From positions 18,233 to 82,232 of the forward strand of contig JBFMCO010000022.1 of NCBI GenBank assembly GCA_040754495.1: a stretch of DNA of 64,000 nt, written 5' to 3'. Origin of the DNA: Candidatus Micrarchaeota archaeon. GTDB lineage: Archaea > Micrarchaeota > Micrarchaeia > Anstonellales > Bilamarchaeaceae. Made by a program: the position numbers and the translations under genes. The notes under the pieces were generated by a model. The model did not search any database and was not told where the DNA came from. It saw only the letters and a list, made by a program, of their open reading frames with translations. This document shows, in pieces, positions 1 to 42,996 of the stretch (the stretch's first letter is position 1; the number at the start of each line of letters is the position of its first letter).

Positions 1-315
1 AAAGCGTGTATACGGGGAATTTTCAATACGGATGGAAGCATATACAGAAGATACTCCAAAAAATATTCGAATCACTCCGCCTGCTACAGGAACTACGCAG
101 TGATTCAATTCAAGATGGAGAGCAGGAGTATCATTCGCTGGATAAAAACCAGTTTAGAGACGCATGGGATCCGGGTAAATAGAATAATAAAAACCTCGAA
201 TTGCAGGGTAATAAGGATAACCAACCAGGATGGGGTCCGCCGATTTTACAAAGATATAGGGTTTACACACCCCTACCATGAGAGGAGATACCGCAAGATA
301 ACCGGAGTTGGCTGA
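1..315 (+). CDS. LAGLIDADG homing endonuclease, C-terminal fragment (5' end outside window)
   Basis: Frame 1 is open from base 1 and reads KACIRGIFNTDGSIYRRYSKKY... IRGIFNTDGSI is a LAGLIDADG-type second motif. Stop at 313-315. ORF-track entry 100..315 is the tail of this frame. Confidence 0.55.
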   Translation, partial: KACIRGIFNTDGSIYRRYSKKYSNHSACYRNYAVIQFKMESRSIIRWIKTSLETHGIRVNRIIKTSNCRVIRITNQDGVRRFYKDIGFTHPYHERRYRKITGVG

Positions 316-347
316 AGAGCGGACGGCTGTGATTAGACTTTAAAAGG

Positions 348-356
348 GGATGGGCC
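348..356 (+). promoter_or_regulatory. candidate archaeal TATA box upstream of tRNA-Lys
   Basis: CTTTAAAAG centred about 23 nt upstream of tRNA position 1 (375). Spacing is roughly as expected for archaeal promoters. Confidence 0.35.
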
Positions 357-374
357 AAAGATTTATCCGTTTAT

Positions 375-540
375 GGGCCCATAGCTCAGCTTGGTAGGGG
401 GGCCGCTCTTATTATAAGAGAGGCCTCGCCGTAAGCGACGGACTCTTATCTTTTGGAAAGGCACTTACAGCCCGTTTTGGGCCGCCTTTTCCCAAAAGGC
501 GGAAATCCGTGTGTCGAGGGTTCAAATCCCTCTGGGCCCG
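375..540 (+). tRNA. tRNA-Lys(CUU) with two introns (about 398-433 in the D-arm, 449-504 at canonical 37/38)
   Basis: Acceptor GGGCCCA/TGGGCCC. D-arm GCTC-AGCTTGGTA-G[intron]AGC. Anticodon stem ACGGA/TCCGT with loop CUCUUA[intron]A. T-arm GAGGG-TTCAAAT-CCCTC, discriminator G, no encoded CCA. Splice boundaries are ambiguous by 1-2 nt. Confidence 0.75.
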
Positions 541-541
541 T

Positions 542-564
542 CCCCTTTTTTAGTAAAAAAGGGG
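542..564. terminator. perfect 10-bp inverted repeat with T/A runs directly after tRNA-Lys
   Basis: CCCCTTTTTT-AGT-AAAAAAGGGG. T-run on + strand, A-run mirrored. Plausible transcription stop for the tRNA. Confidence 0.45.
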
Positions 565-654
565 CCAAAAAACTAATTGTTTGTCAACCCCCCGTGGTTA
601 CCATTTATCCAAAAAATCCAGCGGATTAAAAACGCGATTAGCGATAAAATATTC

Positions 655-1545
655 ATGTCACAGCCCCTGCAGAAGCCCGCGCAAGAGCACCAGCGCCTCC
701 AGACCACTCCCCGCATCCGCAGGCCTCCTTTCGTGATGTGCAGGGACATCGAGCAGGTGAGGGAGGTGCTGAGGATTTACGGCGCGATGGAGATGCACCT
801 GATGATGTCCGGAATCCTGGAGAACAGGAAGGAGATCGGGAGCCTCATGTATGCTTATGACGAGACTTCGAGGCAGGCGCTCGCGCGCGCCCCGCCGATG
901 GTGGTGAGGGTCCCGCAGGGCCTTCTGGACCAGCTTGCGATAGCCGGGGGCGCGAGCGGTGCCTACGTCCCGGGGACCAATATCGTCCTCGTGTCATCGT
1001 CGCCGGCCCGTTTCCCGGACGGGACGCCGCAGAGGGTGGAGGACATAATAACCCACGAGACTCTCCACTATCTCGACTATCTCCTTCATGCCAATCGCAT
1101 GGCCTTCAGGAGCCGGGGGCGGCTTGTGAATCCGGAGCCGCCGAGATTCTTCGACGAGGGAGCGACCAACTATGCTGCCCTCCAGGTCGTCAGCGGGATG
1201 CATCTGCCCGGAAACCGGGAAGCACCTGCCAACTACGCATATCCGACGGCAGTGATGGTGGCAATCGAGATGCTCGCAGGCATCGAAAGGCTGGCTCCGG
1301 CCATGCAGAGCGGCAACTGGGAGCATGTGCAGCAGGCAATCGACCAGAAGCTCGGCCAGGGCAGCTTCGAGCGGATACTGGATTGCGGCAACGGCGCGGA
1401 AGCCATCGGGCTCATACTGGAACTGGATAACGGCCAGCCCCCCTTTATAGACAGGCAGCTTCTCGAGCGGCATCCGGTCATGAGGAGGGCGAGGCGCGGA
1501 ATCGAGGCCATGAGGCCGCCGTCCATGGCGGGCCAGGAGATATGA
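655..1545 (+). CDS. hypothetical HExxH (zincin-like) protein, first gene of the giant-gene operon
   Basis: ORF 577..1545; the first ATG is at 655 (TTG at 577 is an alternative start). Motif IITHETLHYLDYLLH contains HETLH. Same strand as the two following genes and 71 nt upstream of the next. Confidence 0.6.
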   Translation: MSQPLQKPAQEHQRLQTTPRIRRPPFVMCRDIEQVREVLRIYGAMEMHLMMSGILENRKEIGSLMYAYDETSRQALARAPPMVVRVPQGLLDQLAIAGGASGAYVPGTNIVLVSSSPARFPDGTPQRVEDIITHETLHYLDYLLHANRMAFRSRGRLVNPEPPRFFDEGATNYAALQVVSGMHLPGNREAPANYAYPTAVMVAIEMLAGIERLAPAMQSGNWEHVQQAIDQKLGQGSFERILDCGNGAEAIGLILELDNGQPPFIDRQLLERHPVMRRARRGIEAMRPPSMAGQEI

Positions 1546-1616
1546 ATCGACCGGCGGTTCGCTAGCCATAAAAAGCGTCTCCTGCATATCCATTCGCCGC
1601 TCCGGGTGCGAACTAC

Positions 1617-1946
1617 ATGGCGAAGGAAAAAATCGACTGGTCACAGCCCCCCAACCCGTCACTGCCGTTTATCAGCCCGGAGAACATAGGCGAGGTCGAG
1701 AAGGAGGCGCTGGCGATGGCCAACAAGGCTATTTCTCTCCTTGAGCAGGCGATAGCAGCCTGGGACAACGCTAAGGACAAGCCGCCTGAGCTGAAAGGGA
1801 CGATTCAGAGGTACAGGCGGTTCCACGAGGCGCTGAGCGACTGGGAGAAAAGGATGCTGCAGTCCCTGGGGAAGGCGGATTTCAATGCCCGGGTGAGGAT
1901 GCTCGAGGAGTTCGTGAGGATAAGCAGGGCATACGAGGGTAACTGA
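1617..1946 (+). CDS. small helical hypothetical protein (109 aa), translationally coupled to the giant ORF
   Basis: ORF track. Its TGA stop (1944-1946) shares one base with the ATG (1946-1948) of the giant ORF (TGATG). Confidence 0.55.
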   Translation: MAKEKIDWSQPPNPSLPFISPENIGEVEKEALAMANKAISLLEQAIAAWDNAKDKPPELKGTIQRYRRFHEALSDWEKRMLQSLGKADFNARVRMLEEFVRISRAYEGN

Positions 1947-16900: not shown

Positions 16901-19900
16901 CCTCCAGGGAGGGACATGTACGCCGTGGAGATAACCGGCGAGGTGCGGAAGGCCGTTCCGGACATAGACAAGAGGACGAACCGCATCCGGACCTCGGACG
17001 GCAGGATGGTCGCGATAATAGACTCGGCCGACCCGCTCGCGAAAACGCTGCTCGACGGGGGAATTCCTATGGTGAAGGCGAGGCGCGACATGCCCCGGCA
17101 GGGAGAAGTTGCCGTGGATGATGCGACCGGCATAATACGGGCCGCTCCAGGGTTCGGAAAGCTGACCGGAATCCAGGCCTACCAGGCCGGCCCGGTTCCG
17201 GTTTTCCGGGCGATGATGGGGGCAGGGGAGGGGTTCATGCTCGGGCAGTTCGCGCACATCGGCCATTATATATTGGCCAAGGAAACGAGCGTGAGGGAAG
17301 CCGCGCAGGTTCCTGCCGGAGTGGTGGCCGGGGAGATAGAAGCGCCGGGAATAGAGCGCATGCCCGCCCCGGCGCAGGTGGAAGGGGTAAGGGGCGGGAT
17401 GAGGGACCTGGTAGGGGCAGTCAGGTCCGGAGACGAGGGCAGGATAAGGGCCGCGGAAGCCGAGTACGATAAGAGGCTCGGAGTGCTGGCCAGGCTAAGG
17501 CCAGATACGGAACTGAGGGTCGTGGAAAACGAGACGCTGTTCGCGGACCTGGCTCCAGGGGGGCAGGCACAAGCGAAGGTGCTCGCGGCAGACTATCTCA
17601 GGAACAGGTCCGCAGGAAAGAAGCTTGACGGCGACCTGCTCGTCATCGACTACCTCGTATCGCATGGAATGAACGCGGTGGATGCGGCTGCGGCAGTCGT
17701 GAATCTGGGGGGCGCCGGGAAGGCGCCTGCCCCTGTGACGCTTCCGCCGTACGTTGCCGAGCACTTCGGGACCAGGCAGCCTGACCCGGTCACGGCTGAA
17801 AACGCGCTGATTCTTGCCGGGGACAGGAATACGCTCGGAAGATTGGGCATACCGGACGGCCTTGGCAGGGTCCTGAAAAGCGAGGGCATGGCTGTCGTGT
17901 CCGAAGGAAAGAGGATGACCGAGGTGAGAGGCTATTACGATCTGGAGAGCGGCAGGATAATATACCTCGGCAGGACGGACGCGCCAAGGGAGGTCACGGC
18001 GGGAGGAGTGGAGTTCGTCCTCCGTTTCGACCATGAGAGCGGGAGGGTATCCATTCCGGAAAGCGAGGACGTGCCGCTTCCGGATTCGATTGCCAGGCTG
18101 AACGGAATGCGCATTGCGCCCCCGCCCCAGGCAGTGCCGTTTGGCGTTTTCGGCATTTTCATGCCACTGTTCAAGTATTTCAGGAAGCCCCCGGCAGCCG
18201 CCCCGCAACCTGAGGCCGTGCCCATCAAGGTCCCGAGGTCCAGGAACGACATCCAGGGAAGGGCCGAGGGCATAAGGGGGCTGCCCCCGGACCAGCAGGC
18301 GCAGGAGCTTGCGGGGCTGCACGATGCCGTGGCCGCCGAGCATGGCGACGTTTATGCGAGGAATTACCGCGACATGATGGAGGAGCTGGTGAAGCATCCG
18401 GAGCATTCGGGCAGGATTCTCGACGAGTGGGAGGCGGTGAGGGCCGAGGAGAAGCATTACGAGGCGCTCGAGAGGGCGAGGAGGTATGCCTTCTCGGCCG
18501 CAGAGGGGTTCGGGATTGTCAGGGGGCAGGACAGGAAGCTCATATCAGGCGGAGAGTACGCGGCGGACATGGCACGCTCGAGGGGCGAGAAGCCCAAGGC
18601 ATTCCGGAAACGGCTCCTCGAAGCGTATGATGCCGGGTTCAGGAGAGGAGGCGTGCTCGATGCGAGGCTCGGCGTGGCAAATTCGCTGGGTGTGCTCGAC
18701 AATATAGTGGTAGAGTCGCGGCCGGGCGTCTTGGACGAAAAGAGGACGATGCAGGCGAGGAAGGAATTCATCAGGAAGAACCCGGAGTTCTTCGACCTAA
18801 TCATGAGGGGCGGACTCGAGGAGGTCATCTCCGCGAACCTCGGGGCCGGCGACGTGAGAATCGCAGGAGTCTCGCACGCGGGCGGCATGGCGCGGGGCGC
18901 GTACGGCGTGGAGGTCCTCCTTCCGGACGGCAGGAGGAAGCGCGTGTTCGTGAAGCTGGAGGACCTCGGGCCTGCCGCGTTCGGGGCTGATTTGGCCAGA
19001 GTCGAGGGCATGATTGCGCCGAAAGTCTTCACTGCGGATTCGCAGGGAAGGCCGCTCTCGTATGACGTGAGCTACAAGGACCCCATCGGAAAGAGGATGG
19101 TGAGCGGCCAGAGGCGCTTTGGCATCATGCTGGATGTCCGCGACACGGTAGGGCAGAAGGCCAGGGTGAGGACCGCGGACGGGAGGTTCAGGGAGATAAC
19201 GGTCACGAGCGTGGCGCTCGTTGGCGACGACATCTTCAATGCCAGGTCGCTTGACGGGATACCCCAGCCCTCCAGGGCCGCCGCGGAGGACTTCTGGACC
19301 GCAATGGGAAGCGAGGGCGGGCGCGAGGAGATGTTCAGGACGTGGTACGCGTACCAGGAGATGTCAAGGCGGGCCACCCTCAGCGACAGGCACACCGGGA
19401 ATTCGATGTACGTCATCGGCGTGACGTCGGATGGCGAGACCGTGAGGACGTTCCAGCCCATAGACCCGGACGATATCGGAGCCAAGGTCGAGGCCAGGCC
19501 GGAGGGCATGAACTTCAGCGAGTTCAACGATTTTTCCGCGCTCTACACGTCGAATTTCGTGAACGGCCTGTACCTCGCGTCGGATAACGCCGCGAGCCTC
19601 GGCCTGCTCAAATCCCCGATCAACCGCGCGCAAGCGAGCAGGGCAGCATCGAGCGACGCCGCGATGTCAGGGTGGAGGCTTCCGGAAGACCCCGGGTGGG
19701 TGAGGTCCGCGGCTGAGTTCATAATCATGGATTACGATGGCAAGCCGTTCGGCCTCGGAACGGACATGACGATAGGCGGGCACGGCTCGTACATAAAATA
19801 CCATGCCGGCAGGAGGAGGGCGGCAGGCTACGACGGCCGCGTCCGGATGTACTCGGACGAGATGCTGGCGGTTTATCGGGGAGCGCAGGACCCTGCCAAC

Positions 19901-22471
19901 GCGGCGGATGTCGCGCGCAGGGTGGATGAGCGGATGGGCTGGGAGAACGCCGGCCACATGAGGGCGCTTGAGCGGAGGTATCCGGACCTCGGCACCCTGC
20001 CTCCGCACATGCAGGAGTACAGGGAGCCCCTCGAGCGTGCGCGCAGGCGCATAGCGGGCGGCGAGAAGCCCGATGACGTTTACCTTGACGAGTCGAAGAG
20101 GATGCTGAGGGCTAATCCCCGGGAGAGGGCGAAGGCCGAGGACATAATCACGAGGCACGGGAGGGGCGTGGCAGACGCCGAGGTGTCCGCGGTCCTGGAG
20201 TTCCAGAAGAGAAACGGCATCGCGTCTTTCGAAGATGCGGCGTATGCATTCGTGAGACAGCAGGCCGCGCCGAAACCTCCAGCGGAACCGCTGCAGCCAT
20301 CCGAAGCCATTTACCGGAAGCATGAAGCGAATATTTTCGGCCCTGCCCGGGGGCAGCTTGGCAGCGAGCTCCTTGCCAGCCTGAGGGGCGCTGAGGAGAG
20401 GATAGCCGGCATGGTGCCTGAGGGGCCGGAGAGGGAGCGCGCGCTCAAAAGATGGGGCGAGTTTGCAGACCGGGCGCTCTCGCGCATCGCCGATCTCCCG
20501 GCACCCGAGCGCGCGGACGCGCTGGCGCGCTTCATGATAGCGGGCGACTATCTCCTCACAAGGGCGGCTGAGAACCCGGCGCGCACGAAGGCATGGCTCG
20601 ATTTCATCGCCGACAACCCGAACGCCGTCGAATACGCCATGCTCGCCAAACGAGGTCTCGACATAAGGGCGCAGGACATAGTCGTGGCCGAAATCCGCCC
20701 CAGCATCCATGACATGTCTGACAGGAAAGCGCTGAAGAAGGCCCTCGGGAAGAGGGTATCGTTCATGGAGGACGTGATACGCGAGATACCGGAAAGGTGG
20801 TTCATGGAGGCGGGGGTGAGGCGCGATTATATGATGGACCTTGCAGGTTCCGACCCGCTCAGGGCGGCGGCCGAGCTCGACCGCGTCACGATGCCGCACG
20901 GAATCAGTGTTGTGAGGAAGGCAACGGGCGTGTACCTCGCAGAGGTCTCGCACACGTTCTCGCTGCATGGCCAGCCGGACATCCGGGGCCTCGTAATAAC
21001 CGGCGCTTACGGGACGGGCGACATGTTCGACGGCATGACCGCGTATTTCAATCCCCTCAGCGGCAGGATTTTCATGCGCGGGACTGCCCATTTCGCGGAG
21101 GCCGGCATACCGGAATCCGCGCTTCCGGGCATGAAGATGACGTACGTGCATGAGATGCAGCACCTGCTCGACAACGCCGGCGGGTATGTCGCGGCACTCT
21201 CGGCCAGGTCTGCAGGGCGCGGAATGGCCTTCATGCCGGAATACCGCGCCAGGCTCGAGACCACGGCGGTCGCGAGAGAGGTCCTGGAGATGGTTCCCCG
21301 GCTGGGGGGCCGCGGGACCGAGGATGCCATCAACGCAGCCATCAGGAAGGACCCGGAGGAATACAAGCAGGCTTACAGGAAGGCGCTGGACGCCATGCGC
21401 ACAGGCGAGGACGGAAGGCCCGACCCGGACTGGGCGGGCAGGCCGCCCGAGGTTCTGCAGAACCGGCTGAGGAAGCTTATAGACGACGAATACCGGAGCC
21501 TTATGCCGCTGAGCTATACCGAGCTCTACGGGCCGACAACCGCAGGGATCGTCCGCGGGGAGATCACGGTCAGGAAGCCGGCCGCCCCCGAGGCCGTTCC
21601 CTTCAAGCCCGCCGTAGCCGCGGACTCGGCTCCGGGACGCGGGGAGCCGGACCTGCTGCGCTCTGCCAAGTATGAAAATGGAATCCTGACGATAGAGGCG
21701 GATTACCTGGGAGGCGAGCTTGCACATGCGGTGAAGCCGCAATTCGCCGAATCCGCGGTGAATGGCGAGTTCATCCCTTCCGGCGACAGGACAAAGCCGA
21801 GCGGCCTGTGGCTCTCGTGGGGCTCCGGCTGGGATTACTTCACAGGGAGCAACCCCGGCCTGATGTTCAAAGGCACCGTGAAGTTCAGGGCCGAGATGAG
21901 GTCCGGATTGAAGCTCTTCCTGCTTGACGGGCGCGAATCTTTCGATAGCATGATGGCCGAATTCCGGCGGGAAGTTAAGGTCGCCGAGACAACGGGGAGC
22001 GGGTATCCGGATGGCACCTGGCCTGATAACAACTGGGTGTACTACGAGAAGAGCCCATGGCAGTGGCTTAGGGAAAGGGGCTATGACGGCGTGGCCGTGA
22101 CGGAGGAGGGATATCTGGATACCAATTTCCAGTTCGGCTGGGACGCGGCCTCCATAGTCATTTTCGAGCCTGCGGGCAATGTGCGCCTGCCTGGAGGCGA
22201 AGCCAGGCTGGAGGAGTACAGGAAGGGTGCCCAGGGCAGCGCGGACGCCATGCTGCCCCTTATTGAAGAGGCAGGCCTGCCGTTATTCGGCCCGAATAAG
22301 GCGTATGACCTCATAGAGGCGTACGCCGGCGGCAGGGCTGAGCGCAGCCCGGGAAAGCGCATCGATGCCGAGGATGAGGCTTTCCTTAAAAAGCTCCTGG
22401 ACGAGAAACCGGGCCTTGAAGAGGCTGCGAAAAGGATTATCGAATACGTTAGAAAGAGGGAAGGGGGATAG
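1946..22471 (+). CDS. giant multidomain protein, 6,841 aa (repetitive helical region, hydrophobic cluster, 3 atypical kinase-like modules, 1 ePK/RIO-like module, HExxH site, unassigned C-terminal domain)
   Basis: Single uninterrupted ORF in the track. Competing ORFs inside it are antisense or off-frame, low-complexity Arg/Pro/Ser/Ala-rich shadows. Several catalytic-type motifs are conserved (see sub-features). Confidence 0.85.
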   Translation: MGQKPAERQPEVRDEGVRVAQPQVPMVPREQPRGGANEAAANAATGLGVMGKFAAVLDFIIADPSRAEGRLAEFSRRLEPYRADYPEETRIALGLFGAASRMYREAQDARAHGDTQRAQELEDSARAHFREGMAKAGSVPGMAQDIHSLAGAGASPEWIESRKAAFNDVGLGTWNRAIAIDQAVEWRVKNDAIIDAGGPAAREAEARMRDEAVRLAEGSRQGQAFSEQDYQDTMRRFSEASAPVTALAAHIHGAAALFHQAAMRQGVSEQYTKAMEDLKKEFDKLLKKLEEGTATKEDVEKAKELADAVKAAETDLEGLSGDDAVTVSGIHARGLSALRQGKGEMARVQRQLAREYAKTKDPGMRKKLERWSADLAKGKAPEAELERWLEAQRPAEFRALTTENIKRETAERAGLLREKGYERSHPRETKRIAELDREAAKALEEAKALRKRGDLDGAGKLEAKAFRLLREARAKVLWLERLDRFQARLAGIKEPPEMKKAAEEVSKALGGAFNFIGTQDGWRARLAFIAADVFIRYGKVLQSKPAAPLLKGILSIVGILSDPRKKVDEKRAQEEVGRLEPKALSAELGGLKGKVDDKAHSKLTDAVKAASGFIGTNQQWRAAYLLRGVKFFLDNREKIGTRGKLFEGIMGFLGRLADPKGEIGEEEAKREFARITGIPAEAPAQAGGRREAALTVAGLKQAGEGFEKRLRAIPGHEEQVRSITETVKLAGEEFRAGNVKKAQELLALAEKKAAALEGVVEREKRIDASGAPEEAREKLKKAGLAAFNDLGKQSGGRFDTVVKATDLFLGGMERKLWLQPGGETAALKLLDFIGRLGEGALQGLEFDSQAAESELSDISAQAGELWKAMLGASITEWLRLIEGWRTMGGLGTANAKFLDDLAESYRALQKRLEEGAKAEDIEQEASALEARAEHAKKIGEELEERERAVAVFRGDVEDFKADTAAFRASERFKKYAADAEPYVKKAEEWEEKAATFMAEAEKLEGDAKAEMIKRAADAVKRSEELLGHAGKIIGLREAGASDEVVSAYRKAANSYIAVFEPAPPGLAGEAQIFPDDVLAYAAIVFSAADSYLFFRKHGRAEAEKRAERLVLGTTFASRIADAEAELRGLDGEMEYAEAIDSDTAARKQKLMDSATELRGDKRKVPKPREGSAEWYGQMALDALERGDFAVADLAVYRGMFEKVAPGGGRNYVPEDIERDISAVLRGEKVPAAGELDRYLTLIDSASLTAQADLLKRDNPVSGSAEERERKQRVHKLAEEIKRRADAHDFAGAERLLEMATVYTGLARDKKWKAFAGADRMEAALDAELAGGDHSGEFQAAVVYQKASEETASFRASLADWGAGLAENKKLVERGLLRVEQLVSEGKTEEAGALFGQLMLYAGAVRTFAAPKKRDVIPGFDPAYDSSKLGGMGLALDALIKGEAEVGGKKPEEVFSQSFLETQREYLNKRADAYLRLSEKMPVGAETVGQGLAEVRRRAAEGDFEGALRLLEMAGNYYGEAAPGKQAGWRYRDATRKGPGYERGRQDMLNAISMEIAAKDPADHDEALETFNSGSQRISVAKAAIERYEIVERNIYNALPTAVIDEWDHHGTIALRGEPTPENEEGPVLGRVSMEKIRRYESEHPDDTALGGGLSLKTLLTKMKKAAEEGDDEAFRKYEKAFFSRLYLVAGRILRREQLEENRQEVKKYIEVLEGFTAAITIDQLVPYGWLEGDDERLKKVTALEKQLKNNEISKAEFESKLNVILSERLQMIEQNKFTDKVPGPMRETVRQLAPRAKALLERARGLYGKLEKMDNNSSEFPLEEYKQVVKDLSALTEEYQTQRKISVAYSHIDQQLQMNKSYHEAIAGEGALASDYPDAYGRAVKFLGFSNGHFKKAQELLLKGEFKQAGAEFERGINRREWALMEADPNVLFGQANTYLGNLPISMLTGVPIIPESTTAMDEVSMIKHRPGWGVLKLAARGRGEDPYKYTYGWAKQQMENDQDVNLGNPARPDYVKDPQQSWAYYNYSPITEYGADFMGYEELGGRLWNSVLEGDGRKVQRYQKQMLVMEASVFYIPVDTFIDGINSKITYKDWQKRIHFQAMYNGDLAYDELFGDWGLMDARTGAKIAEGVGMFALSIATMGLGSVGFVVGGGKMLWDAIDGIQKDLAKYGEVTTMSWVNLGLTVVGLGASAAAGRLVKASQTAIEAAKLGDAAKFTTQVARAGRFATAARVVAYTDITVNVIGMVPQFYYGIKLMAEGKYAEGTQQLAFGAFSAFMAYHGGVQQLRGMRGLKTEIAKMGALREAHAKAPEVFASLSTPEGMFSFLQRVRARDPVSLVIYDNLPKPQRILFDGMLADRNVVSALKKNDIGLARGAFDSGLETFKQLSDLGGTRALTDAAHLGTQAGLEPFMRDLLIPESATGPQRTRRDAAYARLGEMKKRPETAEAAATIETLLKDKDVQKGNETGVLKIGWAADEIRSQQMQTINRYTDSVVSGEQARLGLYSSEGEAARANAKRIGDSYLAYARARSEGKPFDWDYHAKRMGMGPEDAKKLFAKLDAVPDARTVAGVISREGVRQAVRNRVALDGRAILGDTPLTELAGEGALFSRWGELTPEDLFGMALNRRERAAEELEGAGRETDGRLAAAKRERATALSREADALDAEVKRRQAPEEVLTPDSLRSGAKEKFGRAQRLRSEGRDEEAFALESEARRSIALAADLEKFGEYGIVRATPDGQFIHRDFPDRRFTRAELDDAAILVRAIRKRGVPTDKRLLAIYDALPKEVKKDYRGGEDALMKSVLDVIYSRRGQAAEAAAPVLRSEELPVPSDPALAAVAGMTVPGTNLRWGVIPPDQVLQWQAKVYEAYKAAYGKIGLIYDSPEAMFAKNPEVLVATDGEGRIVAFTILKKTAFGTKLSLVGAVPDIPEGRAAARAMIQGFPALEGAYITAPGAPAHLAIKAGVPVVPYDSARIIQGEVPAEAGSPGAYQNGEGKWVRQEAQRGDGPEGMAAISRMPGFADSELVKHAIAQDGVKPGAKPEELTWNDLVEQAVKMGELPDRPEVRQNAFAVPMVINGKPEIVVKVMFGKPPADALEVRSVLQSRGIGGQVAADAINLYKIFNGEQVPLEVASRYMDVTLHDQYTRIKQEKIASGMPETKADAEALVEVAKSMAPRAGEGGLEAGGPISQEGVELLRMAEGKLDLVEGLTGADVAKATLDWSQPRLEMLRILTVEGSPYRERFLAADPAERAVIADAIARGATPERAFLKAAEGMVPADGRKLLEVGERLKGLPEAERNLRLRDLESLNPALGRMLKRLADPATPETVKQEIAAEWDSAVAGAERHKRVNEARAARDAAQLAEQELALLKGTPDEQAAGRVPAWIESAAKARGKDPAALHEALVKAYGEGGTEGRLRVLNELGALGGMPEGVRSTFVQNSPEFFELIVRGGLEGRVAAMPGFEGGIIVNAEKLEGLRGAYKIDVEMPDGSKRSLFVKAEDLVPAQLGSELAGGHGLLPPVIHAADGQGMPFTYDTGIRYTDPVSGQETAHMQEFGIMEDVHDYATARHSDVIMLPDGRSAQVTVESVAVVSREVFADPARMQAILADEHHPAHKVVKAFWELAKTEEGRQRIFQAWRAYHELSRRAMLLDRFDRNTVAVLVTTPEGESVLTFQPIDMDYVAGKIGSDGDLRFFNDDFASASVDFATKIAGAAGVPAETVLGEMAKAYGSDSVFPREAADERAAAAASVRATLNKYDGKPFGAGYDVEDYGKTIGKDYVEYGGRDRIVGRRDGRAILHAGDITPLGERIGGAEAEADFSRFNREKFERMAKPLEEAAPPPAVEAQPPAGEKTPPGKRGAGNVTPPARPGAMRGAPAGGPRTVPGKRGAGGGEPVAAPGGRRKVAIGGGEVELEPAPERAPELAAMKISEDELSQLGVSYQGLYQDGAGRRLNVFETEAGGERRLVAIPADLSGKAMLDAIGAEVRALGRPTELPPELRGMPPDVSSQVGMDGAPKARLLSSEPLGRGSSADVYLAEMVIDGRPTRVAVKIYKNPEGNGTWQERAEYFADEVRKAKILGDAGLGPKVFGIADAGGNMAFAMEVIEGKPMYIDEMAPGLRAKYINEDTFAQVRKMYDELIAHGYEIGDFDFMILTEGPNAGRVVFLDAGALREVPRGAQGEPRPRYGDGAKRAEGGRLQAEAMTAMEYFTKMDRDELAAVAEVSKGLLGQGHVDSDTMRLLAVRWGSREGRARAIGEYITSIAGADEQKAKATFDALKRIEAETGIRLLPDGARFEDLAARAGEGEISEAEIIAPMSGDDYHAALAGMRTQAARESVALHFSGRGEIPDAATFENAAILADEAAGAKVPEQGQAELSVYYDGNGRIIGIADNERLFYGDPKAINDKTPEAKVRVDLESGRIVSMDERGMKNPLLADLVGLRILPGKGAEGAGPGGRGPPPLPPMKVLDEGSIVSAYASGTGQAQRTRAARSFVMLDGEGQGRVISELRSQGRHEEARHLTELQAIGGEAGAGIERVYGIPRDEIITIYAREPTAQGARKALAERLGIVILPFEWEHYPADRRQWVSVPYRDFRSFEDDHFLFGLITSGNMIDTVSQMYPGGRIASIEYHNGAIGAYEVAIRTQNGETRTVFVKRQDLRPDAAGSDYSVRSGVPAPEVITSAGGRELTYVGPDGEVSRYGIITNMRDFGGMMRFGGVEAQVRATDETALWDLDRSPLAGSLMSQDPQVRAKFWEELGYMLAGSYATGIWDRHAGNARAMVLEVQNADAHTNPADQSSPTVGEALSQKGYWVWQQDGKTYMFMIGGIDTDTAANYLAGEAHGSFDMTGMNIRYGYVDLHSLFNRLATIRGTSVDALVMEAFGDVSGGQVPGPVAMGMKRWWRDFGSDPHYADEMAGRFSSHEGESIGFGYPRTEQELDVIRQGGVLHQENPQNGDPYTIIAFADGRSRMRPEYEIVHREDIEALDPRIAAMFPPGRDMYAVEITGEVRKAVPDIDKRTNRIRTSDGRMVAIIDSADPLAKTLLDGGIPMVKARRDMPRQGEVAVDDATGIIRAAPGFGKLTGIQAYQAGPVPVFRAMMGAGEGFMLGQFAHIGHYILAKETSVREAAQVPAGVVAGEIEAPGIERMPAPAQVEGVRGGMRDLVGAVRSGDEGRIRAAEAEYDKRLGVLARLRPDTELRVVENETLFADLAPGGQAQAKVLAADYLRNRSAGKKLDGDLLVIDYLVSHGMNAVDAAAAVVNLGGAGKAPAPVTLPPYVAEHFGTRQPDPVTAENALILAGDRNTLGRLGIPDGLGRVLKSEGMAVVSEGKRMTEVRGYYDLESGRIIYLGRTDAPREVTAGGVEFVLRFDHESGRVSIPESEDVPLPDSIARLNGMRIAPPPQAVPFGVFGIFMPLFKYFRKPPAAAPQPEAVPIKVPRSRNDIQGRAEGIRGLPPDQQAQELAGLHDAVAAEHGDVYARNYRDMMEELVKHPEHSGRILDEWEAVRAEEKHYEALERARRYAFSAAEGFGIVRGQDRKLISGGEYAADMARSRGEKPKAFRKRLLEAYDAGFRRGGVLDARLGVANSLGVLDNIVVESRPGVLDEKRTMQARKEFIRKNPEFFDLIMRGGLEEVISANLGAGDVRIAGVSHAGGMARGAYGVEVLLPDGRRKRVFVKLEDLGPAAFGADLARVEGMIAPKVFTADSQGRPLSYDVSYKDPIGKRMVSGQRRFGIMLDVRDTVGQKARVRTADGRFREITVTSVALVGDDIFNARSLDGIPQPSRAAAEDFWTAMGSEGGREEMFRTWYAYQEMSRRATLSDRHTGNSMYVIGVTSDGETVRTFQPIDPDDIGAKVEARPEGMNFSEFNDFSALYTSNFVNGLYLASDNAASLGLLKSPINRAQASRAASSDAAMSGWRLPEDPGWVRSAAEFIIMDYDGKPFGLGTDMTIGGHGSYIKYHAGRRRAAGYDGRVRMYSDEMLAVYRGAQDPANAADVARRVDERMGWENAGHMRALERRYPDLGTLPPHMQEYREPLERARRRIAGGEKPDDVYLDESKRMLRANPRERAKAEDIITRHGRGVADAEVSAVLEFQKRNGIASFEDAAYAFVRQQAAPKPPAEPLQPSEAIYRKHEANIFGPARGQLGSELLASLRGAEERIAGMVPEGPERERALKRWGEFADRALSRIADLPAPERADALARFMIAGDYLLTRAAENPARTKAWLDFIADNPNAVEYAMLAKRGLDIRAQDIVVAEIRPSIHDMSDRKALKKALGKRVSFMEDVIREIPERWFMEAGVRRDYMMDLAGSDPLRAAAELDRVTMPHGISVVRKATGVYLAEVSHTFSLHGQPDIRGLVITGAYGTGDMFDGMTAYFNPLSGRIFMRGTAHFAEAGIPESALPGMKMTYVHEMQHLLDNAGGYVAALSARSAGRGMAFMPEYRARLETTAVAREVLEMVPRLGGRGTEDAINAAIRKDPEEYKQAYRKALDAMRTGEDGRPDPDWAGRPPEVLQNRLRKLIDDEYRSLMPLSYTELYGPTTAGIVRGEITVRKPAAPEAVPFKPAVAADSAPGRGEPDLLRSAKYENGILTIEADYLGGELAHAVKPQFAESAVNGEFIPSGDRTKPSGLWLSWGSGWDYFTGSNPGLMFKGTVKFRAEMRSGLKLFLLDGRESFDSMMAEFRREVKVAETTGSGYPDGTWPDNNWVYYEKSPWQWLRERGYDGVAVTEEGYLDTNFQFGWDAASIVIFEPAGNVRLPGGEARLEEYRKGAQGSADAMLPLIEEAGLPLFGPNKAYDLIEAYAGGRAERSPGKRIDAEDEAFLKKLLDEKPGLEEAAKRIIEYVRKREGG
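8330..8800 (+). other. hydrophobic/Gly-rich cluster (probable membrane-spanning segments) inside giant ORF
   Basis: Translations such as GVGMFALSIATMGLGSVGFVVGGG, WVNLGLTVVGLGASAAAG and LAFGAFSAFMAYHGG. This is the only strongly hydrophobic stretch I saw in the 6,841 aa. Confidence 0.45.
12245..13370 (+). other. atypical kinase-like module A of giant ORF (catalytic-loop His replaced)
   Basis: FVQNSPEFFELIVRGG... SLFVKAEDLVPAQLG (Lys codon 12428-12430) ... LLDRFDRNTV (12887-12904) ... FQPIDMDYV (12962-12973) ... KYDGKPFGAGYD. Collinear with modules B and C. Confidence 0.55.
13970..14470 (+). other. ePK/RIO/Bud32-like small kinase-like module of giant ORF
   Basis: Gly-rich loop LGRGSSADVY (from 14006), VAVKIYK (Lys codon 14081-14083), AHGYEIGDFDFMIL (Asp 14372-14374), VVFLDAGAL (Asp 14429-14431). 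No Asn follows the putative catalytic Asp. Confidence 0.5.
15790..16720 (+). other. atypical kinase-like module B of giant ORF
   Basis: GAYEVAIRTQNGETRTVFVKRQDLRPDAAG (Lys 15887-15889), GIWDRHAGNARAM (16235-16252), MIGGIDTDTA (16400-16414). Confidence 0.55.
18767..19880 (+). other. atypical kinase-like module C of giant ORF
   Basis: FIRKNPEFFDLIMRGG... GAYGVEVLLPDGRRKRVFVKLEDLGPAAFG (Lys 18953-18955), LSDRHTGNSMYV (19385-19402), FQPIDPDDIG (19457-19471), DYDGKPFGLGTD. Confidence 0.55.
21149..21163 (+). other. HExxH motif (HEMQH) in the C-terminal region of giant ORF
   Basis: MKMTYVHEMQHLLDNAG. cat gag atg cag cac lies in the giant-ORF frame. Confidence 0.5.
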
Positions 22472-22489
22472 CTGCCGCTGGAAGGGGAC

Positions 22490-23026
22490 TCAGGGCACGG
22501 CCTGCCCGTTTATCACGAAGCTGAATTTCTGCCTCTCCTTCTCAAGCGCCTTCACGGTTTCCAGAGAGTCCTTCAGCATGCGCAGGAAAGGCTCCCAGGA
22601 GCCGCTGCCGGAATGGATGCTGCGGATGGCCTCGGAAACGACGACCTTCCTTTTCTTGTCCACGAAAGTGCAGTAGATGCTGCTTCCCCGGCGCCTGACA
22701 TCGATGCCGTATTCCGCGAAATCCTCCTCCGGCGGAAGTGTGGCGCCGAGCGCGAGCGCGGATGCGACGGATTCTATCCCCTTCCTCGGCTCGGACGAAT
22801 AGGACTGGACGCCGACGCCGTCCTTGAGATAAAGGCTGTCCGGAATCCTGAGGAGCGGCTCCAGCTCCCGGGGCATCCCGCCGGCGATTTCCGCGAGGGT
22901 GTCCATGAGGCGCTCTTTAGTTGCGCGGTCCCGCAGGAGCGGATCTGCCAGCATCTTCTGGAACCTTTTTTCGCCTATGTCCGTTACGGTTGCTCCGGCC
23001 GTTTTCTTTTTTCTCTTTCCTGCCAT
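22490..23026 (-). CDS. small hypothetical protein, paralog family member 1 (array convergent on giant gene)
   Basis: ORF 22490..23032 (GTG); ATG at 23026 preceded by GGTG. The core IPDSLYL...YGIDVRRRGSSIYCTFVDKKRKVVV...GSWEPFL aligns with the 24133..24663 product. Its stop lies 18 nt from the giant ORF stop. Confidence 0.65.
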   Translation of the reverse strand: MAGKRKKKTAGATVTDIGEKRFQKMLADPLLRDRATKERLMDTLAEIAGGMPRELEPLLRIPDSLYLKDGVGVQSYSSEPRKGIESVASALALGATLPPEEDFAEYGIDVRRRGSSIYCTFVDKKRKVVVSEAIRSIHSGSGSWEPFLRMLKDSLETVKALEKERQKFSFVINGQAVP

Positions 23027-23028
23027 CG

Positions 23029-23577
23029 TCACACCAGGTACATGTCGCCGCAGTCGCTGACCGCTACTCTCCCCGGCTTCGCCTTCGCGGCTGCCTCGGC
23101 GGCCCTTATCGCGCCAGCGACTTCCGCCCAGTCCTTTTTTTGCGGCTTGTCCATATAGCGCATGAGCGGCTCCCTCACCATTATCCTCCGGCCCATGTCC
23201 GCGAGCACGAGATAGACTGTGCTTGTCGTCTCATAGACGGCGATGCCGTATCCCATGTCGGGCTTCCGGTCCATATGGCCGGATGAAAGGAAACGCGCCA
23301 GGACAGCGTTTATCCCGAACCCGGCGTCATCCGAAAGCGTGATTGCATTACCGGCCTCGCGCCGGTAAAGGCGCGCGGGGAGCGCAAGCGCCGCCTTGAC
23401 ATCCTCGCTCCAGTTCTGCGCGTATCCTGCAAGGCCCGAAGCGGCGTCCTCCCGCGACACGGAGGCAGGTGGCGCAGCTTCTGCAAGATGGCCTTCAGTG
23501 GCGCCGGCCTTCGCGATGAACGGCTTTTCCGGCGGAGGCAGGGGCACTGGACCGCGGGCATCCCTTTTCTTTGGCAT
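23029..23577 (-). CDS. small hypothetical protein, paralog family member 2
   Basis: ORF track. LPARLYRRE...GYGIAVYETTSTVYLVLADMGRRIMV is collinear with members 1 and 4. The stop is 2 nt before the next start. Confidence 0.6.
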   Translation of the reverse strand: MPKKRDARGPVPLPPPEKPFIAKAGATEGHLAEAAPPASVSREDAASGLAGYAQNWSEDVKAALALPARLYRREAGNAITLSDDAGFGINAVLARFLSSGHMDRKPDMGYGIAVYETTSTVYLVLADMGRRIMVREPLMRYMDKPQKKDWAEVAGAIRAAEAAAKAKPGRVAVSDCGDMYLV

Positions 23578-23609
23578 GAGTAAAACTTGCGATGAACCGT
23601 TTAAAATGG

Positions 23610-24107
23610 CTAGGTCGCCTCGATGAGCCGCCAGTAGGTGTTGTTGTCGAGGATGTTCCTCGCCTTCGCGAGGTCGGCCGGGGGAATCTGCGCCCCCGTA
23701 TCCAGCGCCTTCTTCACCGAGCGCAGGAATGCGAGGTCGGCCCGGGCGGCGGTTATGCAGCCCTGGACGATGCGTTCTATCTTGCCCTTGGCTTCCTCCC
23801 GCGACGCCTCCCCGCTTTCCAAGGATACCTCGATTTTTGACGGGTCTGCCAGGCTCCTGAAAACCACGCCGGAGCCGCCAAGCTCGTCTTTCTTCCCTCC
23901 GGCCATGCCCCGGACGAAGCTCTCGACGCCCCTCCGGAGGACGCCTGCCCCGTTCTCCAGGTCCCGCTCGAGGTATTCGATTTTGCCATCAATCCCGCGG
24001 GCAAGGCCGGCCATCTCCAGGCCCTCGCCTTTTTCCGGGGCGGCGCCTCTTGACGGGAATTTTCCTGAATCGCGCTTTTTCGGGAAGGGAATCACCTTTC
24101 TCTCCAT
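23610..24107 (-). CDS. small hypothetical protein inside the paralog array (no clear similarity to the others)
   Basis: ORF track. Basic N-terminus FPKKRDSGKFPSRG resembles the N-tails of its neighbours. Short spacers of 25 and 32 nt to flanking genes. Confidence 0.5.
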   Translation of the reverse strand: MERKVIPFPKKRDSGKFPSRGAAPEKGEGLEMAGLARGIDGKIEYLERDLENGAGVLRRGVESFVRGMAGGKKDELGGSGVVFRSLADPSKIEVSLESGEASREEAKGKIERIVQGCITAARADLAFLRSVKKALDTGAQIPPADLAKARNILDNNTYWRLIEAT

Positions 24108-24132
24108 GGGGGGTTATTGGCGAATCGGGATT

Positions 24133-24663
24133 TTAAATTGAGCTAACCGAGCCTTCTTTCACAATCACGAACTCGAAGCGCCTGCCGCTGCGCCTGTAGG
24201 ACTCGGCGAGCCTGAGCGCCTGGGAGAGGCTGTCCAGGAATCCGGTCCAGGAACCGGTGCTGACGTACATGTTCTTTATGTCGTCGAACACGACTACGCC
24301 CCGCTTCCGGTCCACCAGCGTGCAGAAGGTGTTGTCGCCCCGCGAGCTGATGTGTATGCCATAATCCGGAAGGCCGGGCGGGAACCCTGAGCCCAGCATG
24401 AGCGCCCCTGCGGCTTTCGCCGCGCCTTTCTCGGCATCAGATGAGAAGGACGATTCGCCGGTGCGGTAAAGCCTGGCAGGGATTCCAAGAAGGTGGGCCT
24501 GCTCGTCGCTCATCGGGACGATTCTCCGCAGCTGTCCGATGCACTCTTCCCGCGTTACTGAATTGGCGTCGGTCATATTGCGCCTCCTCCTCCACTCCGC
24601 AAGGTCCGTCATCCCCGACTCGCGCTCCGGCGCGCCGGAGGAGCGGCCCTTCCCGCCAAGCAT
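24133..24663 (-). CDS. small hypothetical protein, paralog family member 4
   Basis: IPARLYRTGE...DYGIHISSRGDNTFCTLVDRKRGVVV...GSWTGFLDSL...FEFVI is clearly homologous to the 22490..23026 product. Confidence 0.65.
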   Translation of the reverse strand: MLGGKGRSSGAPERESGMTDLAEWRRRRNMTDANSVTREECIGQLRRIVPMSDEQAHLLGIPARLYRTGESSFSSDAEKGAAKAAGALMLGSGFPPGLPDYGIHISSRGDNTFCTLVDRKRGVVVFDDIKNMYVSTGSWTGFLDSLSQALRLAESYRRSGRRFEFVIVKEGSVSSI

Positions 24664-24703
24664 GCCATCTAACTCTTGCGAAGATATTTTAATGGGGCAC
24701 GGA

Positions 24704-25228
24704 CTAGCGGCCCGTCCTGATTCTGTCCGCGAAGCGCTCCATGGAGCAGGATGGGTTCCCGGGGTCGCGGACCGCCATCTCCAGCTCCTTGAGCCGCAAT
24801 CCGTCGGGATGGGCGCGGTCTATGAAGCGCGCGATAATTTTTCCGCCCTCTTCATGGAGCGAGAGATACCAGTATTTCACCCACTGCGAGATGTCGCCGA
24901 GAGTCTCGCCTTCCATGCGCGGCCTCTGCCTCGACGACTTGGTGTCGCAGAGCTCGAGGCCGCCCTCGAAGCGGGAGAGCCGGACCTTCGGCGGGAACGC
25001 GAGCGCCACGTAGATGTCGAAGCCCGGCTCTGCGCCGAGCGTCCTGCAAAGCTCGGCGATGGCTTGCCGGGCCTCCACGGTCTTCCGCATGGGTATCGGC
25101 CAGCCGGGGCTCGCCTTCCCGGCACGGTCGCCTTCCGGTTTCATGGCATCCAGCTCCCGCCTGGGGGGCCGGCCTGGCTTTTCCGGCGTGTCCGTTTCGC
25201 GGGGCGGGCCGGTGATCCTTTTGACCAT
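24704..25228 (-). CDS. small hypothetical protein, first gene of the convergent array (distant or unrelated to the paralogs)
   Basis: ORF track, ATG at 25228. Pro/Arg/Glu-rich N-tail like its neighbours. 40-nt spacer to the next gene. Confidence 0.5.
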   Translation of the reverse strand: MVKRITGPPRETDTPEKPGRPPRRELDAMKPEGDRAGKASPGWPIPMRKTVEARQAIAELCRTLGAEPGFDIYVALAFPPKVRLSRFEGGLELCDTKSSRQRPRMEGETLGDISQWVKYWYLSLHEEGGKIIARFIDRAHPDGLRLKELEMAVRDPGNPSCSMERFADRIRTGR

Positions 25229-25283
25229 AGGATATTACTTATGGTTATCAACATTTTTAAACAGAATTAATGACATATTGTGC
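25229..25283. promoter_or_regulatory. AT-rich divergent intergenic region (candidate bidirectional promoter)
   Basis: 55 bp between divergent starts 25228 (-) and 25284 (+). Contains ATTTTTAAAC and TTAATGA, in contrast to the GC-rich surroundings. Confidence 0.35.
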
Positions 25284-26207
25284 ATGATGCTCGCAGGACC
25301 CAGGGCCAGGCTTGCGCAGAGGGCTGCAAGGTTCTCTTCGTACGCGGTGCTTGCCGGCAGCCTGATGGGCGGATGCCATGACAAAGGCGGTGCCGCCCCT
25401 GCCGAAGACGGGGGCGCCGAACTTCCGTTCTACCGGCTTCCGAGGGAGAGGGACGCGTCAGCGCCGGATTCCGCAGGGGCAATGCCGCCGGCGGCTGCTC
25501 CGCCTGGCACGCAGAGCGCCATACGAGGCCCCCCGCCGCAACGCTCAAGCCTCGGCTGCCAGGACGGGATGGCGAATGCGGGCAGGTACTGCATAGACGC
25601 TTACGAAGTCCACCTCGTGGACGGAACGGGCTCGCCCCGTCCCTATTACACGCGCCCGCCGGAGGACATGCGGGGGCTTAGGGCGGCGACTGCTCCGGGC
25701 GTGTTCCCGCAGGGCTACCTGAACCAGCTCCAGGCGCGCACGGCGTGCCGGAATGCGGGCAAGAGGCTCTGCACGCTCGAGGAGTGGCAGGGCGCGTGCA
25801 GGGGAAGCGGAGGCATGAGGTATCCATATGGCATGTCGTTCGAGGAAGGGAGATGCAATACGCTGAAGTCGCCGCACATACTCGACAAAATCTTCCCGGA
25901 CATACCGCACCTCCGGCGCATGGGCAGGGAGTTCAACGACCCGAGGCTCCTGCAGGAGCCGGGCTACCTGGCGAGGGGCGGCGAATACAGCGGCTGCGCC
26001 ACGGAGAGCGGGATTCACGACATGGCCGGAAACCTCTCGGAATGGGTGGATGATTCCGTGGAGCGGGACGGCATGCTGTATGGGACTTTCGCGGGCGGAC
26101 CTTTCAGCGGGCCGGTGAAAGGCGGGTGCGGGCACTGGACGAGCGTGCATGCGGCGAAATACTCGGATTACTCGATAGGGACAAGGTGCTGCGCGGACGG
26201 GCGGTAG
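25284..26207 (+). CDS. FGE-sulfatase/SUMF1-type (C-lectin fold) domain protein with lipoprotein-like N-terminus
   Basis: In-frame ATG at 25284 (MMLAGPRARL...LAGSLMGGC). Motifs CRNAGKRLCTLEEWQGAC and GIHDMAGNLSEWVDD are typical of the FGE-sulfatase domain. The upstream part of ORF 25014..26207 overlaps the - strand gene. Confidence 0.65.
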   Translation: MMLAGPRARLAQRAARFSSYAVLAGSLMGGCHDKGGAAPAEDGGAELPFYRLPRERDASAPDSAGAMPPAAAPPGTQSAIRGPPPQRSSLGCQDGMANAGRYCIDAYEVHLVDGTGSPRPYYTRPPEDMRGLRAATAPGVFPQGYLNQLQARTACRNAGKRLCTLEEWQGACRGSGGMRYPYGMSFEEGRCNTLKSPHILDKIFPDIPHLRRMGREFNDPRLLQEPGYLARGGEYSGCATESGIHDMAGNLSEWVDDSVERDGMLYGTFAGGPFSGPVKGGCGHWTSVHAAKYSDYSIGTRCCADGR

Positions 26208-30660: not shown

Positions 30661-30762
30661 CGGAGATTTGTGCGCTCGAAAAATATTTATAAAGATACCA
30701 TACGAGTATAAGCCCAAACCGCTCCGGAATCCGGAGGGGAGTCTAGCAGGGAGGTATTGATT

Positions 30763-42959: not shown

Positions 42960-42996
42960 GGATGCAGGAAAAAAATAGCGGGGGGTAGATTTGAAC
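42960..42996. repeat. 37-bp direct repeat, copy B (overlaps the intact initiator tRNA 3' end)
   Basis: Identical to 42817-42853. Covers tRNA positions from the T-loop to the discriminator (42976-42996) plus 16 nt downstream of the tRNA. Confidence 0.8.

Follow-up and report, generated by a model that had tools for sequence, protein, structure and literature searches.

Giant proteins presumed to act in host interaction are known from ultrasmall symbiotic archaea, for example as the SPEARE proteins of Nanohaloarchaeota, which have serine-protease, adhesion and restriction-endonuclease domains, and variable blocks of orphan genes that begin at the 3′ end of a tRNA gene and are absent in relatives are familiar as tRNA-associated islands and integrative elements. 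Here we describe a locus that recalls both, in a 64,000 nt stretch of DNA from a Candidatus Micrarchaeota archaeon (GenBank assembly GCA_040754495.1, contig JBFMCO010000022.1, forward-strand positions 18,233 to 82,232; referred to throughout as the window). A 25.7 kb segment of the window, positions 541–26222, directly follows a tRNA-Lys(CUU) gene and contains a gene for a protein of 6,841 amino acids (aa). The segment is present in the window and in the close relative GCA_964540525.1, and is absent at the orthologous site in three more distant loci (L012, L015 and L014). It carries a three-part cassette that, by homology and gene order, recurs across Micrarchaeota: a gene for a small protein, w109, the giant gene, and a convergent pair of genes for small proteins of one family, S (subtypes 1 and 2). 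Taken as a whole, the explanation that we consider probable, with some reserve, is that the segment was gained from a Micrarchaeota pool and that the giant product of its cassette would be an exported or host-directed multi-kinase protein.

The giant protein and the SPEARE proteins are alike in being multi-thousand-residue, lineage-specific products of ultrasmall symbiotic archaea with a presumed part in host interaction. They differ in that no sequence relation between them was found; by Pfam, the giant protein lacks protease, adhesin and restriction-endonuclease domains, and it has instead kinase-like modules and the w109 and S partners. With MARTX, large clostridial and polymorphic toxins it shares very large size, a paucity of cysteine, a central hydrophobic region, shuffled enzymatic modules and small partner genes alongside. 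Unlike MARTX and clostridial toxins, however, it is archaeal and has no RTX-type repeats and no cysteine-protease, glucosyltransferase or known trafficking domains, and whereas the immunity gene of polymorphic toxin–immunity systems lies downstream in the same direction, the S genes here are convergent.

Giant proteins in nanohaloarchaea are mentioned in one source (PMC10266531). Our literature searches found no description of the present family; the searchable literature is incomplete, and this is absence of evidence only. The resemblance to tRNA-associated islands and integrative elements lies in a variable block of orphan genes that is bounded by the tRNA 3′ end and absent in relatives. The block in the window differs from them in having no integrase, duplicated attachment (att) site, compositional signature or virus or plasmid genes, and its cargo is native to the phylum.

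The variable segment beside tRNA-Lys(CUU)

The window has a GC content of ~61% and an archaeal gene content, including the large subunit of PolD (interrupted by an intein), CysRS, PurN, an Lrp-type regulator and RpiA. Exact-match look-ups of three of its proteins, one from the core and two from the island, gave no hit. The window was compared with two contigs of GCA_964540525.1, namely CAZIND010000154 (L008), reached through a 94%-identical homologue of the 109-aa protein w109, and contig 34 (L016), reached through a 95%-identical S protein. Four more distant loci (L012, L013, L014 and L015) came from a metagenome scan with the 36 nt third exon of the tRNA-Lys gene. Contig L008 carries the C-terminus of GlyRS, a lipoprotein gene of metallo-beta-lactamase-like type (MBL-type, assigned from reading of the sequence), tRNA-Lys with the same two introns, the gene for HExxH-296, a 106-aa gene and the beginning of the giant ORF; from window position 370 on, its nucleotide sequence is 92–94% identical to that of the window. 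Contig L016 has the gene order of the window, from s180, s182, s165, s176 and s174 through the FGE-like gene, PurN, u394, GT2, CysRS and two membrane proteins to PolD. In L012 and L015, by comparison, GlyRS, the MBL-type lipoprotein gene, a LAGLIDADG gene and tRNA-Lys are followed after ~160 bp by PurN, GT2, CysRS, the two membrane proteins and PolD; these loci match the window at ~73% in nucleotide sequence, and amino acid identity is 77% for PurN, 70% for CysRS and 71–87% for PolD. Two unrelated small genes separate tRNA-Lys from an inverted PurN in L014, and yet another gene lies 3′ of tRNA-Lys in L013. The PurN genes near tRNA-Lys in L012, L015 and L014 are 72–77% identical to that of the window.

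In a four-way alignment, homology to the island-free relatives ends directly after the last base of the tRNA, ...CTGGGCCCGT. We therefore regard 541–26222 as a presence/absence polymorphism with its left edge at the tRNA 3′ end, and gene order shows at least four different fillings 3′ of tRNA-Lys, a hot spot of variation. The genes of the segment and its right border are listed below with window coordinates; the ratio of non-synonymous to synonymous substitution rates (dN/dS), like dS itself, refers throughout to the window compared with GCA_964540525.1.

655–1545, plus strand: HExxH-296, a 296-aa protein with the motif THETLH; accessory cargo, no library match
1567–1577, plus strand: putative TATA box CATAAAAAGCG of a w109–giant operon; the same motif lies 5′ of the w109 homologue in L009
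1617–1946, plus strand: w109, 109 aa, cassette component 1; its stop overlaps the start of the giant gene by 1 nt; dN/dS 0.25
1946–22471, plus strand: giant gene, 6,841 aa, cassette component 2; intact open reading frame (ORF); GC at codon positions 1, 2 and 3 (GC1/2/3) 0.65/0.46/0.79, like core genes
22490–23032, minus strand: s180, S family subtype 1, cassette component 3; convergent with the giant gene, stops 19 nt apart
23029–23577, minus strand: s182, S family subtype 2; dN/dS 0.16
23610–24107, minus strand: s165, orphan small protein of the same minus-strand run; a 134-aa gene is at that place in L016
24133–24663, minus strand: s176, S family subtype 1
24704–25228, minus strand: s174, orphan small protein, first gene of the minus-strand run; present in L016; dN/dS 0.11
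25229–25283, no strand: AT-rich divergent spacer with TTTTTAAA, 25% GC, between starts at 25228 (minus) and 25284 (plus)
25284–26207, plus strand: FGE-sulfatase-like gene (Pfam FGE-sulfatase, E 2e-9), last gene of the variable segment
26223–26837, minus strand: PurN, a formyltransferase (Pfam Formyl_trans_N, E 1.6e-51), first syntenic core gene of the right flank

A reading made from the sequence only had taken the genes that follow the tRNA for a possible horizontally acquired accessory island, ending at an AT-rich divergent region beyond which ordinary genes begin, and had suggested comparisons of gene order and of composition as checks. The block is indeed missing at the orthologous site in relatives, with the tRNA 3′ end as its left edge, and the spacer is as AT-rich and divergent as described; it probably holds the promoters of the small-gene run and of the FGE-like gene. 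The right border has to be moved. The FGE-like gene is not between tRNA-Lys and PurN in L012, L014 or L015 and is present in L016, and thus belongs to the variable segment, the core beginning with PurN at 26223. A second, smaller indel lies nearby: u394 (27209–28393, minus strand), a 394-aa orphan with the HExxH motif AHEVAH between PurN and GT2, is present in L016 and absent between those two genes in L012, L014 and L015.

The compositional comparison went against a foreign block. Third-position GC is 0.73–0.85 in the giant gene and its neighbours and 0.64–0.88 in core genes. Tetranucleotide frequencies, counted strand-symmetrically, give r = 0.97 between the block and the remainder of the window, with the region of the PolD intein as the only 4 kb outlier. 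In relative synonymous codon usage the giant gene reaches r = 0.88 with the core; one half of the core set against the other gives 0.82, and the PolD intein against the core 0.44. By composition, therefore, the block is native, indistinguishable from the core, and the endonuclease sequences are the foreign pieces. Its genes have dN/dS values of 0.11–0.53 and dS values of 0.05–0.22, against 0.04–0.09 in the core, from which we conclude that they are functional and were already in place at the split from GCA_964540525.1. All homologues found come from archaeal metagenome contigs or metagenome-assembled genomes, and every one with a taxon name is from Micrarchaeota: loci of the giant-gene family bear the label Candidatus Micrarchaeia or Micrarchaeota, and one S homologue is named Micrarchaeota archaeon. 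A foreign origin of the block is thus not supported by its sequence; of the proposed horizontally acquired accessory island, the accessory character stands (absence in L012/L015 and L014), and the foreign, integrative character does not, given native composition, the lack of integrase and att site, dS near that of the core and taxon-named homologues confined to Micrarchaeota.

A left boundary exactly at a tRNA 3′ end, with downstream content that differs among four lineages, would also be expected of a classical tRNA-targeting integrative element (a provirus, plasmid or element like an integrative and conjugative element) with an integrase that has decayed or is encoded beyond the ends of the window. 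As the sequence-only reading had already noted, there is no integrase and no repeat of the tRNA-Lys 3′ end: no integrase or transposase domain was found in any island ORF with Pfam, NCBIfam or PHROGs, the tRNA 3′ end is single-copy in the window with up to three mismatches allowed, leaving no att site, no repeat of at least 10 nt is common to both ends of the block, and no target duplication was found. By homology with L015 and L008, the region 5′ of the window holds GlyRS and the MBL-type lipoprotein gene. Other cassette loci likewise show no integrase, and no relatives of the giant family were found among IMG/VR contigs, GenBank phages or PLSDB plasmids. Together with the native composition, these results make such an element very improbable.

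The same native composition, dS close to the core and want of integrase and att site would fit a block that stood here ancestrally and was later lost from the lineages of L012/L015, L014 and L013, and genomes of DPANN archaea do undergo reduction. Three separate losses would be needed, however, each in a lineage with its own filling, and tRNA-Lys and PurN are adjacent in both L012 and L015 and, with a small insert between them, in L014. Other Micrarchaeota cassettes occupy unrelated contexts, never adjoining PurN or a tRNA gene, and the w109 and giant homologues of L009 (77% amino acid identity) have a different upstream region. We judge ancestral presence unlikely. The reading that we prefer is of a lineage-specific variable segment in a rearrangement hot spot 3′ of tRNA-Lys(CUU), probably gained by integrase-independent recombination, from its own Micrarchaeota pool or one closely related to it, before the split from GCA_964540525.1. 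Gain in the window lineage, rather than loss elsewhere, is what the distribution suggests. Against it stands the lack of any mobility gene, att site or target duplication that would mark the route of arrival, and loss in the relatives is an unlikely but possible alternative on a comparison of gene order.

A recurring cassette with a giant kinase-like protein

The stretch 577–25228 comprises eight ORFs. Library searches of the island ORFs covered Pfam (reporting limit E ≤ 0.01), NCBIfam, PHROGs, PDB sequences and PADLOC; the first four gave no significant match, and PADLOC gave one weak match, to the kinase PD-T4-6 (E 9e-4). Besides that weak kinase match, Pfam, NCBIfam and PADLOC identified no known trafficking or toxin domain in the island proteins. 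Weak matches to T4_RIIA1 and NTase_sub_bind fell below the models' own cut-offs and were disregarded. The earlier statement that the block has no recognisable function therefore holds for library searches, but not for what comparison within the phylum brings out, a conserved cassette that encodes kinase folds.

Homologues of w109 lie directly 5′ of giant genes in L001 (the locus of protein P0001; 113 aa), in the second cassette of L005 (Candidatus Micrarchaeia STL-MIC1), in L008 and in L009, and genes of 92–103 aa take the same position in L010 and L011. On the other side, all recovered giant-gene contexts have convergent ORFs of 145–208 aa directly after the giant gene. Homology to the S family was confirmed for L001 and L004–L007, where the S genes are directly 3′ of the giant gene and convergent to it; in L010 two convergent ORFs (208 and 178 aa) occupy the S position, their homology to the family being unscored. 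In L001 two convergent genes of ~190 aa, homologous to s180, s182 and s176, are followed by genes for enolase, the proteasome and aCPSF1. The S family accounts for three of the five small genes in the window, its two subtypes co-occur in every locus, and its predicted fold matches no solved structure.

The cassettes are flanked by unrelated housekeeping genes: enolase and proteasome, RTC, ProRS, or a RecJ-like DHH protein. One genome may have several cassettes. In MAG016 there are two on different contigs, and in STL-MIC1 two stand in tandem, a second w109-like gene and a second giant ORF following the first S-gene array at L005 17622–21638; this second ORF, which has the N-terminus of P0021 (5,879 aa), is open for at least 1,221 codons to the end of the locus. 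Several further features of the window were considered as parts of the cassette or as general traits of it and set aside. HExxH-296 is 94.6% identical in L008, with a dN/dS of 0.36, and has no homologue 5′ of other cassettes. In other Micrarchaeota neither PurN nor u394 lies in synteny with the giant genes. Outside the window's own lineage (L008) no cassette has a tRNA T-loop motif next to it, the single nearby match being in L010, at a distance of 5.4 kb; ARAGORN is uninformative on this point, since it finds none of the known tRNA-Lys copies. As for s165 and s174 being divergent S proteins, jackhmmer was negative for s165 and hhalign gave a probability of 0.3%, and homology search did not place s174 in the family. 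HExxH-296, s165, s174 and the FGE-like gene would be lineage-specific passengers.

The giant gene and the first convergent gene end 0–19 nt apart (22471/22490 in the window, 13744/13745 in L001, 14982/14983 in L004 and 17390/17399 in L010). With no room for separate terminators, the transcripts from opposite strands must overlap or share a termination signal.

In the giant protein itself, not one of the 6,841 residues is a cysteine, where ~100 would be expected from the core proteins of the window (1.46%). In the 38 family members of more than 3,000 aa the cysteine content is 0.084%, a depletion of ~17-fold. The N-terminal 321 codons have a dN/dS of 0.29. A homology search with aa 3300–4300 found one protein, P0001, and a search with a module profile, run without a word index, returned 83 representative clusters, 50 of them at E < 1e-30 and most of 3,000–7,300 aa. 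The order of shared modules is shuffled between family members. The recognisable parts of the giant protein are as follows.

8303–8935, plus strand: hydrophobic Gly/Ala-rich stretch, aa ~2120–2330; the only Kyte–Doolittle peak above 1.6, at aa 2133
11933–13498, plus strand: kinase-like module A, aa 3330–3851; FVKAEDL, DRFDRN, IDMD
13880–14797, plus strand: protein-kinase-like module, aa 3979–4284; GRGSSADVY (glycine loop), VAVK, DFDF
15626–16990, plus strand: kinase-like module B, aa 4561–5015; FVKRQDLRPD, WDRHAGN, GGIDTDT
18416–20005, plus strand: kinase-like module C, aa 5491–6020; FVKLEDL, DRHTGN, IDPD
20438–21625, plus strand: HExxH module, aa 6165–6560; HEMQH at aa 6402, then ETTAVARE

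Modules A, B and C are internal repeats of one another (A and C are 37% identical, E 1e-44). The lysine of FVK and the D-R-x-x-x-N motif are invariant across these modules and P0001, and among 15 sequences of the module B type the Asp and Asn of the catalytic loop and the first Asp of IDxD are invariant, with the Lys and the second Asp conserved in at least 90%. Modules A–C have a predicted bilobal kinase fold, at 9–18% identity to any solved kinase, and they are predicted to be atypical kinases closest to the branch of PI3K, PI4K and actin-fragmin kinase. What they have in common with PI3K/PI4K/PIKK and actin-fragmin kinases is this bilobal fold, an ATP-binding Lys, a DRHxxN-type loop and a metal-binding Asp. 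They differ from PI3K/PI4K/PIKK in lacking a Pfam match and helical or FAT domains, and in occurring as three copies in one archaeal polypeptide; the giant protein has no match to Pfam PI3_PI4_kinase at E ≤ 0.01 and none to PDB sequences. To our knowledge, PI3K/PI4K-like kinases are hardly known in archaea.

For the module at aa 3979–4284, a profile of six copies matched StkP and PknE in the PDB weakly (E ~1e-3), with Rio1 at 0.07, and the weak PADLOC match mentioned above falls on this module, which may be of the protein-kinase or RIO-like kind. The HExxH module has eight homologous copies in other family members, all of which keep the H, E, H and D and a further E downstream, and would be a putative metallopeptidase. 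It has no solved relative: its profile matched only colicin Ia in the PDB (E 4e-4), which was judged compositional. The hydrophobic stretch at aa ~2120–2330 is a candidate membrane-insertion segment, and a similar Gly/Ala-rich hydrophobic stretch is visible in P0001.

A separate gene cluster stands beside one of the other cassettes. Positions 2755–8352 of L001 (minus strand), 5′ of the P0001 cassette, hold a run of small orphan genes with a 500-aa DUF87/AAA_10 (HerA/VirB4-like) ATPase, which might be a cluster of secretion or DNA-transfer type.

Possible roles of the giant protein

In the giant protein a long N-terminal region and a central hydrophobic stretch precede a series of enzyme-like modules. 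The protein may be exported or membrane-anchored through the central stretch, and it could present or deliver the kinase modules to the archaeon that serves Micrarchaeota as host. Proteins w109 and S would then be dedicated partners, acting as chaperone, adaptor or inhibitor. On this view the giant protein would be an exported or host-directed multi-kinase effector.

Several observations weigh against that role. Export and host targeting are drawn just from the depletion of cysteine, the way of life of the phylum and a lack of homologues of cytoplasmic type. In the window neither a secretion signal nor a gene for a secretion system was found. The S proteins do not match the kinase modules in number, P0001 having one module and two S genes, and at every locus examined the S genes run convergent to the giant gene, unlike the genes of toxin–immunity pairs.

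Some of these points would suit a protein that works inside the Micrarchaeota cell as a scaffold or in signalling, for example in a cytoskeletal or regulatory function. The N-termini of the giant proteins are polar and have no signal peptide, the window offers no secretion genes, kinase domains are usually cytoplasmic and the flanks are housekeeping genes. Such a protein would not, however, be expected to show an extreme, family-wide loss of cysteine or a central hydrophobic stretch, and shuffled modules in several copies per genome are typical of interaction or conflict proteins; we hold an intracellular role to be doubtful, though deserving of some weight. If the exported, host-directed role that we prefer is extended to the whole family, a tentative picture emerges, possible rather than probable, of a phylum-wide, expandable arsenal: Cys-free giants would insert into or cross the host membrane and deliver kinase arrays, w109 and the two S subtypes would be export or neutralizing partners, and cassettes would move between hot spots without an integrase. 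Archaea would then have, in a multi-kinase form, a counterpart to the multi-effector toxins of bacteria.

Few candidate effectors are known for the attachment of DPANN archaea to their hosts and the exploitation of those hosts, and the locus provides a testable three-component candidate, represented by ~80 clusters. Nearly identical chromosomal backbones with and without the cassette form a natural comparison and show that cassettes relocate within the phylum. If the kinase modules are active, their substrate, whether a host lipid or a host protein, would be of direct interest.

The tRNA-Lys gene, the LAGLIDADG gene and other neighbours

The left border of the segment is made up of the following features.

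1–315, plus strand: LAGLIDADG homing-endonuclease gene, C-terminal 104 codons; frame 1, open at the 5′ edge, stop at 313–315
339–345, plus strand: TATA-like box TTTAAAA ~30 nt 5′ of the tRNA gene; putative archaeal promoter, read from the sequence
375–540, plus strand: tRNA-Lys(CUU); exons 375–397, 434–448 and 505–540, introns 398–433 (D-arm) and 449–504 (position 37/38)
542–564, plus strand: hairpin CCCCTTTTTT-AGT-AAAAAAGGGG, 10 bp stem, predicted −11.6 kcal/mol; first feature on the island side

The identification of a tRNA-Lys by the sequence-only reading was borne out, although ARAGORN with default settings calls only the 3′ part in the window, as Gly(ccc) at 461–540, and Rfam at its gathering threshold gives no match on 375–540. 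In the unspliced gene the acceptor stem is perfect, a 36 nt insert interrupts the D-arm, and a 56 nt insert at position 37/38 interrupts the anticodon arm, ACGGA/CTCTTAA/TCCGT; with both introns removed, ARAGORN returns a canonical 74 nt Lys(ctt) cloverleaf, the splice junctions being ambiguous by 1–2 nt and the folds unconstrained minimum-free-energy predictions only. In L008, L012, L013 and L015 the exons are identical and the introns have diverged, with paired changes within the intron hairpins. Further copies lie at 1397–1556 in L008, ~1625–1783 in L012 and ~2791–2949 in L015, and default ARAGORN reports none in those loci. Standard finders miss or mislabel two-intron tRNAs, and so tRNA inventories and tRNA-linked features of this lineage are probably under-annotated. 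On the minus strand of the window, 42984–43041 has a partial tRNA match in Rfam (30 bits, model positions 10–63) with no ARAGORN call, and may be another intron-bearing or otherwise unusual tRNA gene.

The motif around the TATA-like box, GATTAGAnTTTAAAAGGGGATGG, is kept in L012 and L015. The strong hairpin reported after the tRNA is there, and it is kept in the island-bearing L008; L012 and L015 have an unrelated T-run at that place.

The ORF at the 5′ edge of the window matches Pfam LAGLIDADG_3 above the cut-off (E 9.8e-6). Its homologue in L015 is a complete free-standing ORF of 239 aa with its own start, between the MBL-type gene and tRNA-Lys; this and the stop codon at 313–315 mean that it is not an intein, in agreement with the original description of an ORF that stops at 315. 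The gene resembles known free-standing LAGLIDADG genes in its domain, its own start and stop, its foreign composition and its presence/absence polymorphism, and differs in adjoining an intron-containing tRNA gene rather than lying inside it. Homologues with 61–69% amino acid identity lie 5′ of tRNA-Lys in L012, L013 and L015, and the idea of a mere strain-specific insertion, which absence from L008 had suggested, was dropped for that reason. In L008, a 93%-identical relative with no LAGLIDADG gene, only ~40 bp (1356–1397) separate the MBL-type lipoprotein gene and the tRNA. A metagenome scan with a 36-mer from the ORF gave no match. By its distribution, the gene flanks the island, is not part of the block and varies independently between genomes.

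Free-standing homing endonucleases can carry their surroundings with them: the seg and mob enzymes of phage T4 co-convert flanking sequence. The LAGLIDADG enzyme could in the same way drive the variability of the locus, by cutting endonuclease-free alleles near tRNA-Lys, with repair co-converting the flanks and the island among them. The endonuclease gene is polymorphic in presence directly 5′ of this same tRNA, and it has stayed at 43% GC in hosts of 52–61% GC, with a codon-usage correlation to the core of −0.03. Island and endonuclease nevertheless assort independently, L008 having the island without the endonuclease and L012 and L015 the reverse, and known co-conversion tracts are far shorter than 25 kb, so that we find an endonuclease-driven origin scarcely credible and retain integrase-independent recombination as the probable route.

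Endonuclease sequence occurs once more in the right flank, where PolD (31778–36658) carries a low-GC intein at 32522–34051 on the minus strand, with a LAGLIDADG domain (Pfam Intein_splicing and LAGLIDADG_3); the PolD of L015 is contiguous across the insertion point and thus without the intein. Two small membrane proteins (30757–31134 and 31236–31685, both on the plus strand) are encoded between CysRS and PolD and are syntenic in L015; the first is annotated as MamF_MmsF in L016 and is duplicated in L014.

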